Source: a virus
Length of the DNA: 32,207 bases
Virus genome (UHGV): UHGV-1442421
Reading direction: 5' to 3' (one strand)
Under the pieces are notes generated by a model, which worked only from the letters and a program-made list of their open reading frames with translations, made no database searches and was not told the DNA's origin. Made by a program: the position numbers and the translations under genes. Shown in pieces: positions 2,666 to 19,607 of this stretch; the stretch's first letter is position 1; the number at the start of each line of letters is the position of its first letter.

Positions 2666-3119
2666 TCTTTAGCTCCTCGTATTTTGAGCGCGGTAACTGA
2701 TAAATCGTGATGCCTACAGGCTTTCCATTGCTGGTATAAGCATCATCAAGGTGACCAACACGGGTAGCGCCAAGCAAACGGATAATTGACCGTCCGTATT
2801 TCGTGGTGTCAGGAACCATAGTGATGCTGTTAAGGAATGGTGAGTTTTCGAGAAGCCATTTGCAGAATAATCGATGCCCTTGCAGTGCATATTCGCCACG
2901 GAATCCGGGGTCGTACACCGCATGGCATTCAACAACGCTATGCCAGAAGTTACGCACTTCATGCACTCCGACCAGCATCAGTCCTTCGTAGATGCCGAGG
3001 TATACCGCATCAGGCTTGATGTAGTATTTGTCTCCACTGTCTACGATATTTCCCGTGTTTGCCGGGTTGTTGAGGAATTCTGCAAGCTTCACCGGATTAT
3101 CGATGAGCTTTATTTCCAT
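2640..3119 (-). CDS. P22 gp14-like virion protein (159 aa)
   Basis: ATG at 3119 overlaps the needle stop as ATGA; position between needle and gp7 as in P22. Confidence 0.55.
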   Translation of the reverse strand: MEIKLIDNPVKLAEFLNNPANTGNIVDSGDKYYIKPDAVYLGIYEGLMLVGVHEVRNFWHSVVECHAVYDPGFRGEYALQGHRLFCKWLLENSPFLNSITMVPDTTKYGRSIIRLLGATRVGHLDDAYTSNGKPVGITIYQLPRSKYEELKNVNFPDCQ

Positions 3120-3967
3120 CACTGCTCCGCAATGATTTTGATGGTTGTGGCAGTAAACGCCGCCCCATTTGACTGAATGGTTAACGTGCTGCCATTTGTG
3201 GCAAGAAAGCCGTCTTTATCCACGCTGAAGAACGTAGCTAACAGGATGTTATCGGTTGTTGTCGCTGCATTACGACTGCTGACCAACGTGTCAGGAACAG
3301 AGCCGGAAAAGGTTAGCTGCATTGACCTGTTGGCGGTTCCGCTGGGCCACGTCCCGACGATCGACAGCTTGAAGAACAAGGTTTTGTTCTCGTTGAACAC
3401 AACCATCTTGTTGTTAACAGTGTCGAAGAATGGTGCCAACGAGCCGGATGACGGCGTGAGCGTTTTCAGCAGGCTAACAAGGTTGGTCGGCGCTGTCGGG
3501 ATGGTTACAGATACGCCAGAGTAAACAACCTCTGACTTCTTGCGAGTAGTGGCATACTCCAGAGCATCGATGCGCGTTTCATGGTCTGAAAGCGTGTTTT
3601 GAATGGCGATAACTTCATCAGTCAGATAATCAATATCGTTTTCTGCTGTCGTTAATCGTGAATCAAGGCCGACTATCGCCGCTTCTGCGTTAGTGATCCT
3701 TGTTTCGTGGTCCTGTATCTTCGCTTCAGCCGATGCCAGTCGAATTTCGTGATCGACCAGAATCACATCCTGCTCATCGTTCCTGACTTGTGCGTCATAA
3801 GCGCCCTGTCCGGCCTCGTTGGCCTTGTTCGCCACGTTACCAACATCAGTGCCCTGTGCGATAACGTAAAGCAGATACGACTGCGAGAAGATATTGCGTG
3901 GAAGAACTGATGTGTCGAGTCGTGTAGCTTGGATGATTACCGGCACATTGAGATTCGAATCCGCCAT
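3119..3967 (-). CDS. Tail needle protein (P22 gp26 / Sf6 gp9 type) with C-terminal knob extension (282 aa)
   Basis: N-terminal heptad coiled-coil region (repeated HETRI motifs), then a ~130 aa Ser/Thr-rich C-terminal domain; position between gp10 and gp14. Confidence 0.7.
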
Positions 3968-5385
3968 TACTCAATCCTTATCTGGCAGCCAGACAGAGTG
4001 ACAGGTGACTTCGTGATAACGCGCAATTTGAAGCCAACATTTTTCCTGATTCGCCCGACACGCTTCCACAAAACGCGTTTGTCGTAAACGAACGGTTCAT
4101 TCTGCTCAATCATCTGCTCACGCCCGTAATTGATGCCGTCAGTGGTTGCAGAGAGAAAAAGGCGGTCGGCGTACTGCGCAACTCCAGTTGACGACTCAAC
4201 CTCAAGGTCGAAAACTCTGGCGTTATCTGCTTTGAACAACGGAGTAAACAACAGGTGTTCCTGTTGCTTGTCGTACTGGCTGCTGATATCGAATTGCAAT
4301 TTCCCGGTCACGGACTCCAGCTTATCGCCGCACGTTATCTTATTGCCTTCGTAAATGAAGTCGATAGCGCGGTACACATCGTCATACAGGCCTGTTTTCA
4401 GCACACACCATTGCGGACCATTGGCGCTTGAAGATGCGTCGTACACGAGGACGTGGCGCGGCAGGTGGATAATCAGCAACTCATGAGCATCAAAGCGCAA
4501 CGATTCCATCACGCCATCAGCCAGTTCATCAGCAGTGTAGGAGCGGAGGATTTTCTCAATGCTCGCGCTGGCGATTGGTGACACCTGACCGGAGCCGATG
4601 ATGTATACAGACGGCGCACCTGTTGCCGGATTGCTGATGAACGCATAAGAATCAGCGAATGGCGTTTTGCAGTAAGTCCCGGCAATGCCTTTCTGCACCA
4701 TCAGTGATGGCTGTGCGACATACAAAGCAGCACCAACAGTTGTTGCGCCAGTCAGGGAGAAATATTCAATCGTCGATGAACCAAAGCAGACGATGAAGTC
4801 TCGCCATGTTCCGATGCCGATGATGCCGTCAGGCTGAGACTCAGCACGATATTGTGCGCTGTAGCGGTCAGGATGCGATTCGTCTTCAAGGTCAGTGATA
4901 AACCATGAATCAGTGCCGTCTTTTGACCACGCATAACGCCCACGTAAGCGCGTAATGTCACGGACCGAACCTAATTCATACTGCGTGAATCCGCTGTCTG
5001 TAGGCCAGTTTGAGACGGTTTTAACCGTGCCATCATAGCGATACTCGACCAGTTGACCATTAACGCCTACCGCCTGTGATGTTCGACCATGCGCCATTGA
5101 TACGCGACCACTTCCGGAAACATCACCGACTTCACTTTCTCCTTTGTAGAGCTTGCCACCACACACGCGATAAACAGCACTCTGCGCCATGTTGTACTCG
5201 ACTCCGCGCGATACACCGTTCACATCAGAACGTTTGGCAATGCCCGGGAATGAGCGAAGATATCCGCTGCTGCTCAGGATTTCTTTGGGTGTAGCCAACA
5301 TATTCACTGGCAGATAGTCTATATAGTCGGCGTTTCGAAAGTCTTTGCCGACACCTTTCATAAGCGGAAGTTGCTGAATCGGCAT
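3967..5385 (-). CDS. Tail accessory / head completion protein, P22 gp10-like (472 aa)
   Basis: ORF track; same length as P22 gp10; start overlaps gp4 stop; gene order. Confidence 0.8.
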
Positions 5386-14508: not shown

Positions 14509-14754
14509 GTCTTACCCCCAATAAGGGGATTTGCTCTATTTAATTAGGAATAAGGTCGATTACTGATAGAACAAATCCAGGCTACTGTGTTTAGTAATCA
14601 GATTTGTTCGTGACCGATATGCACGGGCAAAAAGGCAGGAGGTTGTTAGCGCAACCTCTTGCCACCCGCTTTCACGAAGGTCATGTGTAGAAGGCCGCAG
14701 CGTAACTATCACCGATGAATTCATGATAGCCAGTGGCTACGGCTCAGTTTGGGT

Positions 14755-14880
14755 TGTGGCGGCCGGAATCGAACCGGCTTCCATCGGTGCGCTGCCGATT
14801 GCAGTACGCGCGGCGGGCAGCTACATGACTAGTATTTTCACTATCGCCTATCTGCTAGCTCGCCATTGAGCTTCACCACA
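14755..14880 (-). other. Degenerate tRNA-like element: canonical T-arm and 3' acceptor, candidate 5' acceptor and D-arm about 100 nt upstream, non-canonical anticodon loop
   Basis: Minus-strand GCCGG-TTCGATT-CCGGC (14762..14778) then CGCCACA; candidate partner TGTGGTG (14874..14880) and D-arm GCTC..GAGC; no encoded CCA. Confidence 0.3.
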
Positions 14881-14950
14881 ACGATAAGAGCACTCGGTGC
14901 ATTTAAGCCAAGCCCCATAAGGGAGAATGCTCTTACCTGTTGTGCAAACG

Positions 14951-14980
14951 CAAAAAGCCCCGAGCTATTAACTCAGGGCT
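14951..14980 (-). terminator. Intrinsic terminator, tR'-like, ending the short PR' leader transcript
   Basis: Minus-strand hairpin AGCCCTGAG / CTCGGGGCT (one G-U pair) followed by TTTTTG. Confidence 0.6.
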
Positions 14981-15015
14981 TTATTTAACGAGTGCATTTA
15001 TCCATCGTTGAGTCA

Positions 15016-15044
15016 AATTTACCCAACTTTATTCAAAAAGTCAA
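15016..15044 (-). promoter_or_regulatory. Late promoter PR' (-35 TTGACT, 17-bp spacer, -10 TAAATT) with overlapping Q-utilisation region
   Basis: Read on minus strand just downstream of Q; matches the lambda PR' motif as I recall it. Confidence 0.6.
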
Positions 15045-15086
15045 TATCATGCCGTTAATATGTTGCCATCCGTGGCAATCATGCTG

Positions 15087-15710: not shown

Positions 15711-15895
15711 GGCCTTCCCCTTTTGCCCTGTTTGACCATCAGGACGCCGTTAACTATTACGTGACGCTCGCCTTTGCTGTCTCGGTTGTACTTGAGCACT
15801 GTTCCTCTTGCGCAGGAAAGCATCCTCGCCACTTCGGTCTGATTGCCTCGTGTCTGAATAAGAAGCTCTGGTATCGTTTGAATTGTGGCGTTCAT
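15707..15895 (-). CDS. ninH: NinH-like small protein (62 aa)
   Basis: Motif GNQTEVAR and position immediately upstream of Q; ATGA overlap with Q start. Confidence 0.65.
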   Translation of the reverse strand: MNATIQTIPELLIQTRGNQTEVARMLSCARGTVLKYNRDSKGERHVIVNGVLMVKQGKRGRP

Positions 15896-16254
15896 GCGTT
15901 CTCCAGTTCGGTGATTTTTATTCCAAGCCTTCCACCTGGTACTTTCACGCCACGAATTACGCGAATGTCATCGAATTGCTCGTCGTCTTCCGCAAATCCG
16001 GCGTGGATAAGGGAGTCGAGTAAACCTTTCAGGATGTTGTCGAGGTCGCGGCGGCGGGAGTCTGGAACGTCTGCGATGACTTTGATACGGAGTCGTGATT
16101 TGGTGAAAATGTCTAACTTGAGTTGGCGAATGATTTGCTGAACGTCTTTTCGGTATTTCTGGCCTTTATCGCTGATGTAGTATTGGCTTCCCCGTCTTCG
16201 CCAGTAGGTATTCACCGACGGCGGGTATGGAAGCACAAACTGATATTCGTTCAT
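15892..16254 (-). CDS. rusA: Holliday junction resolvase RusA (120 aa)
   Basis: RusA-like motifs (PPSVNTYW, RRRDLDN, C-terminal GGRL..I..E); typical nin-region gene. Confidence 0.85.
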   Translation of the reverse strand: MNEYQFVLPYPPSVNTYWRRRGSQYYISDKGQKYRKDVQQIIRQLKLDIFTKSRLRIKVIADVPDSRRRDLDNILKGLLDSLIHAGFAEDDEQFDDIRVIRGVKVPGGRLGIKITELENA

Positions 16255-16541
16255 GGCTTAATCTTCCCCTCCTTCAGCAGTATCGCCTGCGTCCTGATCA
16301 CGCCTTCGAGGTGGTAAAGTCTGGCGTCTTTGTTGTCGAGATTATGGGTGCGTCGGTCGATTTCATCGTGACACGCGCTACAAGCCCATGCGCCGATCAG
16401 GTCGTCAGGCTTCATTCCCGTTCCGCAAATTCCAGCCATCCGGTAATGTGCCAGAACTGTAGTTTCAGGATTACCATTGCATACGCCGTAAATACGTACC
16501 TGGCATTCTCTGCCGCGTGCTTCTTTGCGTAGATTAGCCAT
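16251..16541 (-). CDS. YbcO-like (DUF1364) putative nuclease, Cys-rich (96 aa)
   Basis: Recognised as resembling DLP12 YbcO; several conserved Cys/His; ATGA overlap with rusA. Confidence 0.6.
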   Translation of the reverse strand: MANLRKEARGRECQVRIYGVCNGNPETTVLAHYRMAGICGTGMKPDDLIGAWACSACHDEIDRRTHNLDNKDARLYHLEGVIRTQAILLKEGKIKP

Positions 16542-17263
16542 TAAGCAGCCTCCCCTGTTACTTTCAGCATTCCATTATCGAGCAGCTTTCTGGTCAGCCA
16601 CTGTTGACCACGCCCGGTGATTTTTGTGGTGAACGATATCTGTATTCCGTGATTTGTGTTGACCGCTGTTTCTTTCACTGTGAAATAGCCGCGATCCATA
16701 TATTCCTGCATTGGCACATTGCGCCGGGAACCTGAAGCAATAAGGATTTTGTGATCGCGCATCCACGCAAACAGTTTGTTTGGACCAATTCCAACAACCT
16801 TTGCAAAGTTTCCAATCAAAATTCCGCTGGCCTCGCCAACGCGATCGGCAAACTCAACTTTAGGTGCGGCAATTGCGAGCTGGTTTTCCAGTTGCATTTT
16901 CTGCTCAGCAAGATCAGCAGCAAGGCGCAACGCTTCTGGTAGCGTTTTGGGGATATTAACCGCAGCTTCTTCAAGCTCTCGCCAACGGTCAACAAGACGA
17001 GCGGTGAATTCCGGCGACAACTGGGCGACGACAATAATGCTGTCTCGCTTACCTTGTTCGCCCTCAAAAACGTAAGCCTCTACGCCACGAAGTAATCCTA
17101 AGTTATTGATTTTTTCGAAAACCACCATTGGGGGATTTCGGATCACACCTCGAGCCGCCAGTCGTTCAATAGATTGTTTCACCTTGTCATGACGACTTCC
17201 CACCAACTCAGCGATTTCAATGCTTGTCATTTTGATGGCATTGCCATTTATTAACTCATTCAT
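16541..17263 (-). CDS. Phage antirepressor-like protein (Rha/AntA-type N-terminal domain, KilAC-type C-terminal domain; 240 aa)
   Basis: N-terminal HTH-like region and C-terminal KilAC-like region (domain names recalled, not searched). Confidence 0.65.
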   Translation of the reverse strand: MNELINGNAIKMTSIEIAELVGSRHDKVKQSIERLAARGVIRNPPMVVFEKINNLGLLRGVEAYVFEGEQGKRDSIIVVAQLSPEFTARLVDRWRELEEAAVNIPKTLPEALRLAADLAEQKMQLENQLAIAAPKVEFADRVGEASGILIGNFAKVVGIGPNKLFAWMRDHKILIASGSRRNVPMQEYMDRGYFTVKETAVNTNHGIQISFTTKITGRGQQWLTRKLLDNGMLKVTGEAA

Positions 17264-17432
17264 CGTCTTCTTCCTCGTACATTGAGCTATTCGGATCGCT
17301 CATCAGTTCTGCGCAGCAGTGCTCACACACGTGAACTTCCAGCACATGCAGCTTCTGACCGCAGTTAGCGCACGTTAAAGCCCGCTCGACGCTTTCTTTC
17401 TGGTATTGAATGGATTGGGATGGGCTAAGCAT
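17256..17432 (-). CDS. ninF: NinF-like small Cys-rich protein (58 aa; below the ORF-track size cutoff)
   Basis: Hand-translated to MLSPSQSIQYQKESVERALTCANCGQKLHVLEVHVCEHCCAELMSDPNSSMYEEEDDE; overlaps antirepressor start. Confidence 0.6.
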   Translation of the reverse strand: MLSPSQSIQYQKESVERALTCANCGQKLHVLEVHVCEHCCAELMSDPNSSMYEEEDDE

Positions 17433-17787
17433 TATTAGCGACCTGCATCATTAGAAATACAATCATGGCTGCGCGGAGAGGCGATTCACCGCAGAAGCAG
17501 TAGTCAGGACCCCAACAACCTTCCTCTAAATCACCTCCTGACCATGCGCACCATTCTTTTTCCGCTGTCATCCACATGGTGCTAATTTTGTTTTCAGTGA
17601 TGATCGGATATGCGTCAGCGGCCATATTACATGGGTCGAAATATCCGCAAGGCAAAAACTCACCACCATCAATTCCAGCCAAGTAAACTTCTTTCTTTTC
17701 TGGATCCCAGTCGTAATTGTTTTTTCCTAGCACGATATGCGCGACTTTTAAGTTAATTTCAAAATCACTTAACTGTGAATAATCCAT
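17425..17787 (-). CDS. Hypothetical nin-region protein (120 aa from ATG at 17787)
   Basis: ORF track frame; internal ATG with GAGGAA 7 nt upstream; several Cys and Trp. Confidence 0.5.
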   Translation of the reverse strand: MDYSQLSDFEINLKVAHIVLGKNNYDWDPEKKEVYLAGIDGGEFLPCGYFDPCNMAADAYPIITENKISTMWMTAEKEWCAWSGGDLEEGCWGPDYCFCGESPLRAAMIVFLMMQVANNA

Positions 17788-17789
17788 AG

Positions 17790-17972
17790 TCATTTCCTCG
17801 CACGATGTCTTAGCCACCGGATATCCCACAGGTGAGCCGTGTAGTTGAAGGTTTTTACGTCAGATTCTTTTGGGATTGGCTTGCGTTTATTTCTGGAGCG
17901 TTTCGTTGGAAGGTATTTGCAGTTTTCGCAGATGATGTCGGTGAAACTTCGTCGCTTGCTCTGCTGGTTCAA
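17790..17972 (-). CDS. ninE: NinE-like protein (60 aa; only a TTG start available)
   Basis: Translation resembles NinE as I recall it; no in-frame ATG and no SD; overlapped by the upstream ORF. Confidence 0.45.
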
Positions 17973-18156
17973 TGGAAATAACCAGGTCTTTGTCGCCTAA
18001 CTGCCAGATAATTCCCTGCTCTTCTTCGTCCCCTGTCATTGCCTCCACATAAGCCATAAGGTAATTCATCATGATGTTTATGCCGTCGACTCCTTCGCTT
18101 TCTGCATCTTCCATGAGGTCAGAGAAACGCTCGATGTAGTCTTCTTCTTCGCTCAT
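17887..18156 (-). CDS. NinD-like acidic small protein (89 aa from ATG at 18156); 3' end overlaps NinE by 85 nt
   Basis: ATG at 18156 with GAGGAA 6 nt upstream; acidic N-terminus [11 protein letters not shown]. Confidence 0.4.
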
Positions 18157-18166
18157 AGCTATTTCC

Positions 18167-19003
18167 TCAGGTTGAACATTCGCAAGGTAATGCGTCGTCA
18201 TCGGCAAACATGTCTATTTGCAGAGCTCGCTCAGCAACTGCTTGCTTAGCAATACTCCAGAATTTTCCAGATGGGACGTGTTCATTTGGCTGAATTCCAA
18301 GTCTTTCCATTTCGGCAAATAACCCCTCCCTTTCCTCCAAATAAACTGCGCCAGCTTCATCCTTGTGAATTGCATATCCGATTTCCTCTTCCGCAGCTTT
18401 CGCCTCATTCCAGATGTCTTTACGAAGCACATAAACGCAGTACCAGTGTTGCCATCCTGCCTTTAAACAGCCAATGCAATTTGCGTGCTTAAATCTCGAA
18501 TAAGCCATTGGGCGGTTAATGCCAATTTCTTCCGTAGAGTGGATTGTTCTTTGCGGCCATAGGGCAATCGGATAGTCAGTTTTATAACCTCGTTCAGCCA
18601 TAACACCCACGCGGCGCTGAACTCGATGCATTTCATTTCTGTCAAATCCGTAGTAGTAGATATTTTCCTTTTGGCTATCATTACGCTCCAGCCACAGATC
18701 AAACGGTCCTGTCTTAAGCCTGTTGGTGCATAGAATTTGACCTGATCCAACTTTCCATGCCCTCGCGTCAAGGCAAACAGATATTGGAGTAGCGTCTTTC
18801 CACCTTTCATGGTTGGCATACGTAACATCTATCCCTAAATAACTTGATATCTCATCCTTAAATCTCTTGATGTCCTCGTCTTCTACTGTGCTACTGATGT
18901 CGTGGTTAAGCAGGATGACATTTTCTCTTCCATATTTTCTGACCACCTCTATCGCGACAATTGCCGAGGAGTGGCCTCCGCTATACAAAACTACGTGCTT
19001 CAT
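18167..19003 (-). CDS. PAPS reductase-like / PP-loop ATP pyrophosphatase family protein (278 aa)
   Basis: N-terminal PP-loop-like motif VVLYSGGHSS; ATG at 19003 with GAGGG 7 nt upstream; occupies the ninC position. Confidence 0.7.
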   Translation of the reverse strand: MKHVVLYSGGHSSAIVAIEVVRKYGRENVILLNHDISSTVEDEDIKRFKDEISSYLGIDVTYANHERWKDATPISVCLDARAWKVGSGQILCTNRLKTGPFDLWLERNDSQKENIYYYGFDRNEMHRVQRRVGVMAERGYKTDYPIALWPQRTIHSTEEIGINRPMAYSRFKHANCIGCLKAGWQHWYCVYVLRKDIWNEAKAAEEEIGYAIHKDEAGAVYLEEREGLFAEMERLGIQPNEHVPSGKFWSIAKQAVAERALQIDMFADDDALPCECST

Positions 19004-19200
19004 GCCCATACCCTCTGTTGATACTTACTCCTACCCTTTGGCTCGCTGGCGTATTCTGGAAGCAACGCGGAAACCACCCATAACCGAGGGTCTGCGCTTA
19101 GCGTTCGTTGAGTTTTTACGTTGCGGGATTGGTAGGCGGTGATTAACTGAGTTGCTTCTTCGTTGGTGAGGTCGTGATGGTGAAACCATGTGAGCTTCAA
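19000..19200 (-). CDS. Doubtful small ORF (66 aa, TTG start only) filling the 195-bp gap between ninB and the PAPS-reductase-like gene
   Basis: ORF track only; no ATG start and no SD identified. Confidence 0.2.
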   Translation of the reverse strand: MKLTWFHHHDLTNEEATQLITAYQSRNVKTQRTLSADPRLWVVSALLPEYASEPKGRSKYQQRVWA

Positions 19201-19607
19201 TCGTACCTCCTGTCAGTGAACCTGACGCTCTGACCGATAGCCCAGGCAGTCGTATACTCTATGAGGCTTGCCATGCGCTTCACACTCATCTGTGCGCTGC
19301 TCTCCCGAATGTTGACGAATTCGCCTTCAAGGCCGCGCAAAACATCAGCTTCCTGCTTTGTTGCCACTGCATGACCGCTAATCAACAAAACCTTCCATTG
19401 TTCTGGTTTTAACCATTTGCCGCACCATTGAACCTGACGAGCGATATCCGCCAGCATCGCGTGAAATTTTGCGTTCTGGTCAAGGTTGCGCTTGTAGTCA
19501 GTAATGCGGATGGTGACTGGCTTGTCTTTATCGAGAGGAGTTGCGAGGATGGCGTTGATTGCGGCTTGCTGTTGTTGCTTAGTTCGGAGGAATATTGTTT
19601 GCTTCAT
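19197..19607 (-). CDS. ninB: NinB / Orf recombination mediator (136 aa)
   Basis: Similar to lambda NinB as I recall it (LDQN, W.GKWL..E.WK motifs); first gene of the nin region after tR2. Confidence 0.75.
   Translation of the reverse strand: MKQTIFLRTKQQQQAAINAILATPLDKDKPVTIRITDYKRNLDQNAKFHAMLADIARQVQWCGKWLKPEQWKVLLISGHAVATKQEADVLRGLEGEFVNIRESSAQMSVKRMASLIEYTTAWAIGQSVRFTDRRYD

Follow-up and report, generated by a model that had tools for sequence, protein, structure and literature searches.

A PptA-like protein of the PAPS-reductase fold in the ninC position of a lambdoid phage: a candidate IscS-dependent sulfurtransferase

In the virus genome UHGV-1442421 of the UHGV set (32,207 nucleotides, nt; this whole stretch of DNA is called the window below), the position directly after ninB, which in phage lambda is held by ninC, carries a gene for a 278-residue protein with a predicted phosphoadenosine phosphosulfate (PAPS)-reductase-type fold. 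What does such a protein do in a lambdoid phage? Phage 'PAPS reductases', NinC included, are a known kind of protein without an established function, and the window gene is a member of this kind that is invisible to Pfam. Lambda NinC is non-essential and 'poorly understood' (PMC10695390; PMC3224144), and in a preprint of 2026 phage PAPS-reductase-like genes are still described as having a puzzling role. Here, the window protein is proposed to be a member of the PHROG 424 superfamily, in the clade nearest to the phage protein PptA, and to be an enzyme other than a metabolic PAPS reductase. The explanation that is favoured, and held tentatively, is a stand-alone, IscS-dependent, DndC/SspD-like sulfurtransferase that would most likely phosphorothioate phage DNA as a counter-defence. 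The part of this explanation that concerns an enzyme handling sulfur is considered probable; once that part is granted, the choice of DNA as the substrate would be close to evenly balanced, if slightly short of it.

The gene and its family

The gene and the segments of its product on which the argument depends are the following.

18167..19003, minus strand: coding sequence of the PptA-like, PAPS-reductase-fold protein, 278 residues plus stop (from the list of open reading frames, the translation and the homologs)
18965..18982, minus strand: PP-loop-like SGGHSS, residues 8-13, with Ser in place of the Asp of canonical SGGxDS
18713..18730, minus strand: C92-T-N-R-L-K97, the putative first Cys of an Fe-S triad together with a putative nucleotide/phosphate-loop Arg/Lys
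18467..18481, minus strand: N175-C176-I-G-C179, the CxxC of the putative [4Fe-4S] site (from alignments)
18176..18184, minus strand: C274-E-C276 on a flexible tail, which may accept persulfide or serve as a fourth ligand of the cluster

As judged from its more than 2,000 homologs, the best of which has an E value of 1e-190, the gene is certainly real and not a chance open reading frame (ORF). The translation of the plus strand of 18167-19003 is riddled with stops. When read from the first ATG, the ORF spans 18167..19009 on the minus strand and encodes 280 residues. The correct reading, however, is the 278-residue one from 19003, which is preferred because its ATG overlaps the stop of an upstream 62-residue ORF (ATGA), a GAGGG Shine-Dalgarno sequence lies 7 nt upstream of this start, the homologs mostly begin with MKH... 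and the annotation of phage Huey contains an identical coding sequence with the same start. The protein begins with M1-KHVVLYSGGHSS, with SGGHSS encoded at 18965-18982, and ends with ...LPCECST. An earlier note on this DNA had described, without naming a strand, a 278-residue PAPS-reductase-like protein with a PP-loop-like motif at this place. Both the protein and the motif are present as described, whereas the name holds for the fold and for membership in PHROG 424 and does not make the protein a genuine CysH, as no CysH model of Pfam or NCBIfam recognizes it.

A protein database search returned 2,178 homologs, none with a Pfam domain and nearly all of them unnamed. Clustering at 50% yielded 70 clusters at E ≤ 1e-30 and 997 at E ≤ 0.001, nearly all of single-domain proteins of about 250-290 residues. 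The members reside in viral contigs of ~40 kb and in prophages of Proteobacteria, Clostridia, Bacteroidota and others, and copies from different bacterial phyla share ~50% identity, a level of conservation that is unusual for a phage accessory gene. In E. coli the gene is rare, being found in 6 of 5,426 complete genomes, and the RefSeq label is 'hypothetical protein' in all six. When 50,697 phage records were searched by tblastn, Escherichia phage Huey was the sole sequenced phage with an identical gene; the next-closest phages are Vibrio phages, at ~54% identity, and lambda was not recovered at E < 1e-5.

The window protein matches PHROG 424 ('PAPS reductase') with an E value of 9e-28. This model also takes in NinC (1e-89), a mycobacteriophage 'PAPS reductase-like' protein (2e-68) and PptA (1e-45), and judged by these matches it is a broad phage superfamily in which the clade of the window protein is the most divergent. 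No significant Pfam match to the window protein was obtained, PF01507 (PAPS_reduct) included, and NCBIfam returned noise only. In a scan of 30 family members, no Pfam or NCBIfam model (CysH, DndC, QueC or other) came near its cutoff, and the weak matches observed, to NAD synthase, LarE, MnmA and QueC, lie on the N-terminal PP-loop alone. The subfamilies between which the earlier note had hesitated (CysH, DndC as represented by curated models, and QueC) are thus all negative in these 30 members. With the PADLOC models, which were applied without a curated cutoff, the best defence-model match is SspD (E = 6.9e-8, residues 4-210, profile positions 1-202 of 277). SspD is also the top defence model for PptA (1.5e-11) and for NinC (1.8e-14).

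The 150 best representatives were inspected for domain fusions, and nearly all of them are single-domain proteins. Long ORFs in the examined loci were rejected as fusions, being ORF-caller artefacts or internal insertions. One apparent fusion was seen in this set (P0233, 443 residues, from a mycobacteriophage-like clade); its C-terminal extension of ~150 residues contains a CWxW…H…C…C…PxHW pattern that appears HNH-like by eye and has no PDB match. The homolog in Mycobacterium phage Donkeykong adjoins an HNH endonuclease and a single-strand annealing protein. The homologs retrieved from the vibriophages of the Le Roux laboratory are stand-alone genes and not the published PAPS::Dam fusion.

PptA, IscS and the conserved residues

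The sole solved structure with significant sequence similarity to the window protein is that of PptA (PDB 21fy, chain C). The match has an E value of 9.3e-14 by phmmer with the single sequence, 4.2e-19 with the family profile and 2.6e-18 by hhalign over 214 columns. The PptA sequence was rebuilt from the alignments and is 100% identical to the product of a gene of Vibrio phage vB_VhaP_VH-5 (18758-19510 of the phage genome, 5974-6726 of the extracted locus). In this T7-like podovirus, the gene stands alone right after that of the phage RNA polymerase and is annotated as 'hypothetical protein' in GenBank. Because the designation of PptA as chain C hinted at a complex, for which a desulfurase was the likely partner, the PDB was queried with E. 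coli IscS. Only two entries, 1p3w and 21fy, contain the native 404-residue IscS sequence, with four chains in total; the presence of IscS in 21fy, together with this total, indicates that 21fy is composed of two IscS and two PptA chains. The PptA chain in this entry is offset by 20 residues, corresponding to a tag, and IscS has its untagged native sequence. This combination suggests that the phage protein co-purified IscS from E. coli. By analogy with its homolog PptA, the window protein may also bind IscS. A complex of IscS with DndC, DndD and DndE has been described (PMC8569181); a literature search found no paper on PptA or on the clade of the window protein.

PptA and the window protein are both stand-alone phage proteins of about 250-280 residues that are encoded among early or replication genes with no partner. 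They have in common the C-[TS]-x-x-L-K and N-C-x-G-C motifs, a C-terminal Cys pair and SspD as the best match among hidden Markov models. In contrast, the PP-loop reads SCGAPS in PptA and SGGHSS in the window protein, the tail cysteines are found in CSLVC ~10 residues from the end of PptA and in CEC 2 residues from the end of the window protein, and the phages themselves differ, PptA belonging to a lytic T7-like podovirus and the window gene to a temperate lambdoid/P22-like phage.

An AlphaFold2 model of the window protein (mean predicted local distance difference test score, pLDDT, of 87.7) predicts a PAPS-reductase-type alpha/beta fold that is closest overall to reductases of PAPS and of adenosine phosphosulfate (APS). 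Foldseek against the PDB gave weak matches (E about 0.01) to generic PP-loop enzymes, and comparison with a library of viral structures provided no further clue. In the model, SGGHSS directly follows strand E5-8. This exact motif is present in 73 of 107 dereplicated members, its Ser/Gly positions are invariant, and the S, G and S are also retained in PptA, NinC and the mycobacteriophage homolog. The C92-T-N-R-L-K97 segment falls opposite 'INKVEP' of CysH in the hhalign alignment. NCxGC is found in 103 of the 107 members, and N175-C176-x-x-C179 is invariant across four phage subfamilies. A Cys pair is located within the last 25 residues of 95 members. Over the last 20 residues of the model, the pLDDT decreases to 68 and then to 50. 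The C-terminal pair takes the form CEC in the window protein, CSLVC in PptA, CGC in mycobacteriophage gp70 and CSESC in NinC.

These four proteins share only ~25% identity, and the residues S8, G10, S13, E41, R47, F48, C92, L96, K97, G119, E124, R127, N175, C176 and C179 are invariant among them. In the alignment, they make up motifs that are also invariant within the family of the window protein, namely S-x-G-x-x-S, E…RF, C92-[TS]-x-x-L-K97, G119…E124…R127 and N175-C176-x-x-C179. Conservation of catalytic-type residues at this level of identity speaks for an enzyme and against a protein that only binds a partner. According to passages of Fu et al. 2025 (PMC12193691), which cite Pu et al. 2020, one Cys and a CxxC hold a [4Fe-4S] cluster in both DndC and APS reductase, Cys280/Cys283 of DndC and the CxxC of APS reductase being cluster ligands, and a mobile fourth Cys of DndC is implicated in the uptake of sulfur from IscS/DndA. 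In the alignments, C92, C176 and C179 appear in the same order as this cluster set and with similar spacing, the single cluster-binding Cys of APS reductase and DndC lying in the region of the C92 motif. The window protein is predicted to bind an Fe-S cluster and to be catalytically active. Among the options listed in the earlier note, that of a sulfur pathway is strongly reinforced, both by the PDB entry that joins PptA to IscS and by retention of the DndC/APS reductase Cys set.

A possible route to sulfur-modified phage DNA, and its rivals

In the mechanism proposed here, the window protein would dock on the host cysteine desulfurase IscS and accept persulfide sulfur. This sulfur would be received either by the two cysteines of the flexible tail or by a [4Fe-4S] cluster that C92, C176 and C179 would hold. 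A phosphate or carbonyl of a nucleic acid would be activated at the PP-loop-type nucleotide site and would then take up the sulfur. The likeliest substrate would be replicating phage DNA, the backbone of which would be phosphorothioated in the manner of SspD/DndC, and the modification may protect against Dnd/Ssp-type or other nuclease-based immunity. Phage DNA is favoured as the acceptor based on the affinity to SspD, the replication-module context of the gene and the anti-Dnd precedent of a PAPS::Dam protein. In the latter case, a vibriophage fusion of a PAPS domain with Dam, together with a neighbour gene, confers anti-Dnd activity (preprint 10.1101/2021.05.05.442762). That system (Piel et al.) resembles the present one in that a phage PAPS-reductase-like domain has been tied experimentally to escape from a phosphorothioate defence. 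Compared by description, it differs in being a 479-residue fusion, in having a PAPS domain that is recognized by Pfam and in needing a second gene. Anti-defence operons under Aca control also include PAPS-reductase-like genes (PMC13551039). JSS1_004, which is known to act against Dnd, was considered as a relative and rejected, as it is a kinase unrelated to the PptA-like family.

To survey the genomic context of the family, ORFs were called and clustered in 157 loci, and 207 flanking genes from the 114 loci left after dereplication were scanned with Pfam. No neighbouring cluster is present in more than 23 of the 157 loci. The recurrent neighbours are a T7-type primase-helicase, DNA polymerase A, a 5'-3' exonuclease, a single-stranded DNA-binding protein and endonuclease I, as well as NinB, NinG and a metallophosphatase. 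Among the 207 flanking genes, none encodes a cysteine desulfurase, DndD/E, SspB/C, ParB or a deazaguanine enzyme, and DNA methylases account for about five cases. The lack of a conserved partner gene suggests that the protein acts alone or with host factors, which fits a partnership with IscS. The idea that modification partners might be found beside the gene in related phages is not borne out, since none is conserved in the 157 loci; nor did the 7-deazaguanine and nucleotide-metabolism options fare better, as no QueD, QueE, FolE, DpdA or other partner is conserved there.

The resemblance of the window protein to SspD and DndC consists of the SspD profile match, the C…CxxC set and the sulfur donor, which is IscS/DndA for DndC and IscS for the homolog PptA. 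Several observations weigh against a DndC/SspD-like enzyme that modifies phage DNA. DndC and SspD need partners (DndD/E and SspB/C, respectively), none of which is nearby in any locus, and the window gene in particular lacks DndD/DndE, SspB/SspC and linked restriction genes. At about half of the 540 residues of DndC, the window protein is not matched by the curated DndC models of PADLOC or NCBIfam. The Mg-binding Asp of SGGxDS is absent across the whole family, with Ser instead, and the SCGAPS loop of PptA is still more degenerate; with SGGHSS instead of SGGxDS, ATP pyrophosphatase activity is plausible and not assured. The identity between the window protein and PptA is ~26%. The window protein is also acidic, with an isoelectric point of 5.8, unlike a typical DNA binder. 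Finally, we are not aware of any report of phosphorothioate in the DNA of lambdoid phages.

Sulfur taken from IscS could instead be passed to RNA. An IscS-dependent PP-loop tRNA thiolase, like TtcA, TtuA or MnmA, would act on host or phage tRNA and might, for instance, tune translation or evade anticodon nucleases. In its favour, the structural match to TtuA is almost equally good and IscS supplies the sulfur for tRNA thiolation; the reading is nevertheless considered unlikely. The best profile match, over ~200 residues, is to the DNA enzyme SspD, whereas TtcA, TtuA and MnmA cover the PP-loop only, and the model contains no extra zinc-finger or RNA-binding domain. In addition, the gene is always located in a DNA replication/recombination module and never beside tRNA genes, and the 32,207-nt window contains no tRNA.

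More unlikely still is a pseudoenzyme that would act as a sponge for, or an inhibitor of, IscS and so cut the supply of sulfur to host phosphorothioate modification, Fe-S assembly or tRNA thiolation. A PptA-IscS complex stable enough for structure determination, the loss of the PP-loop Asp in the window protein together with the degenerate loop of PptA, and the lack of the partner genes needed for a full Dnd- or Ssp-like machine are all in keeping with this reading. However, catalytic-type residues and all of the cysteines are invariant at ~25% identity across subfamilies and, within the family, at ~50% between bacterial phyla, which is unexpected for a binder. Moreover, halting new phosphorothioation would presumably leave the existing host phosphorothioates in place within one infection cycle, and unmodified phage DNA would probably still be exposed to DndFGH.

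A genuine PAPS/APS reductase that serves as an auxiliary metabolic gene and boosts sulfate assimilation is very improbable. The label 'phosphoadenosine phosphosulfate reductase' is applied by both the Huey annotation and PHROG 424, and the overall fold is nearest to PAPS/APS reductases. Against this, PF01507 and the NCBIfam CysH models remain unmatched in the window protein and the 30 members, similarity to E. coli CysH is not significant (hhalign probability of 2%, E = 0.02), the ECGLH motif is lacking, and RefSeq does not extend the label to any of the six E. coli genomes with the gene. The partner of PAPS reductase is thioredoxin and not IscS (PDB 2o8v), cysH is already present in E. coli, and the window gene lies in a replication module. 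A QueC-like enzyme of a 7-deazaguanine DNA-modification pathway is hardly credible: among the viral fold matches, QueC proteins rank low, and the PP-loop gives very weak matches to QueC/QatC (E about 0.04-0.13), but these are far below cutoff and no preQ0/DpdA pathway genes are present in the flanks.

A wider version of the favoured phosphorothioation reading would hold that the PptA-like family, lambda NinC and all of PHROG 424 are single-polypeptide DNA-phosphorothioation enzymes that need only host IscS and neither DndD/E nor SspB/C. This version is speculative and rather doubtful. If true, phages of many bacterial phyla, lytic as well as temperate, would commonly have genomes with sulfur-modified backbones, and ninC, an orphan gene for 40 years, would gain a function. 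PAPS-reductase-like genes are among the commonest phage 'auxiliary metabolic gene' labels and are routinely read as sulfate assimilation. No sequence test identifies the members of the PptA-like clade as true PAPS reductases. If phage DNA is phosphorothioated by this clade, a widespread new route of self-modification and counter-defence would result, and many virome readings of 'auxiliary metabolic genes' would be corrected. The PptA-IscS structure implies that others are already characterizing the family, and no categorical novelty is claimed. New here are the link to IscS, the Fe-S/tail-Cys signature that reaches lambda NinC and the lack of partner genes, which make the question of ninC function directly testable.

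The slot after ninB and the neighbouring genes

The genes around the PptA-like gene that are referred to in this section are as follows.

19197..19607, minus strand: ninB (PF05772, E = 2.9e-54), which defines the 'ninC slot'
19000-19188, minus strand: 62-residue ORF (phrog_1212), overlapping the PptA-like gene end by 4 nt
17887-18201, minus strand: very acidic 104-residue ORF (phrog_38761), overlapping the PptA-like gene end by 35 nt
16251-16541, minus strand: YbcO (putative nuclease, PF07102)
15892-16254, minus strand: RusA

The locus is a lambdoid nin region, and the PptA-like gene, immediately downstream of NinB, is in the ninC position of lambda. DnaB-type and O-type replication genes are located upstream of NinB. 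Downstream of the PptA-like gene, the order is the acidic 104-residue ORF, NinX, NinF, a KilAC antirepressor, YbcO, RusA and Q. The placement of the gene between ninB and ninD/ninE-like genes, as originally proposed, is therefore right for NinB, which is adjacent, and not for the downstream side, where the acidic ORF, NinX and NinF are found. Similarly, its assignment to the 'ninC position' is right as to the slot, which is the same as in lambda, and does not make the gene a NinC ortholog.

Lambda NinC (Orf290) shares with the window protein the slot after ninB, PHROG 424 and the Cys signature with its C-terminal CSESC. The two are homologous over the N-terminal ~190 residues (hhalign E = 1.5e-9), with C-terminal halves that cannot be aligned. 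The pairwise identity is 22% (E = 5e-5), and NinC matches PF01507 (7e-9) as well as, weakly, BrxP and DndC, whereas the window protein does not. In a PDB search with NinC, PptA was not matched. Based on the 22% identity and the differing Pfam profiles, orthology was rejected, and the homology is at the level of the superfamily only.

In lambda, NinC directly follows ninB (3082-3954 of the locus), and in HK97 a Dam-type DNA methyltransferase does so (3453-3980; phrog_111, 8.5e-88). Given NinC in lambda, the Dam-like methyltransferase in HK97 and the PptA-like gene in the window, the position after ninB behaves as a swap site for cargo of the DNA-modification type. The alternation of a Dam-type methylase with a PAPS-like gene in this slot recalls the vibriophage PAPS::Dam fusion with anti-Dnd activity.

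The 62-residue and 104-residue overlapping ORFs have no Pfam or PDB match. They are confined to two or three closely related loci and were rejected as partner proteins for this reason. The acidic 104-residue protein could be a DNA mimic or an anti-restriction candidate.

In the nin region of the window, YbcO and RusA take the place of NinG/Rap of lambda. Phage Huey, the sole phage with the identical PptA-like gene, there has NinG, NinH and NinI; this difference in the downstream genes indicates that the PptA-like gene moves separately from the genes that follow it. A gap of ~580 bp (14509-15086) separates Q from the holin gene; it has no convincing ORF, tRNA or Rfam match and is presumably the late promoter/terminator (pR'-tR') region. 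The G+C content falls to 0.43-0.47 over 17200-19200, a segment that includes NinX, the acidic ORF and the PptA-like gene. The value is 0.45 for the PptA-like gene, compared with a window mean of 0.484 and about 0.50-0.52 for the flanking NinB and Q. A mosaic insertion of foreign DNA would fit this dip; the closest relatives among phages are in Vibrio.

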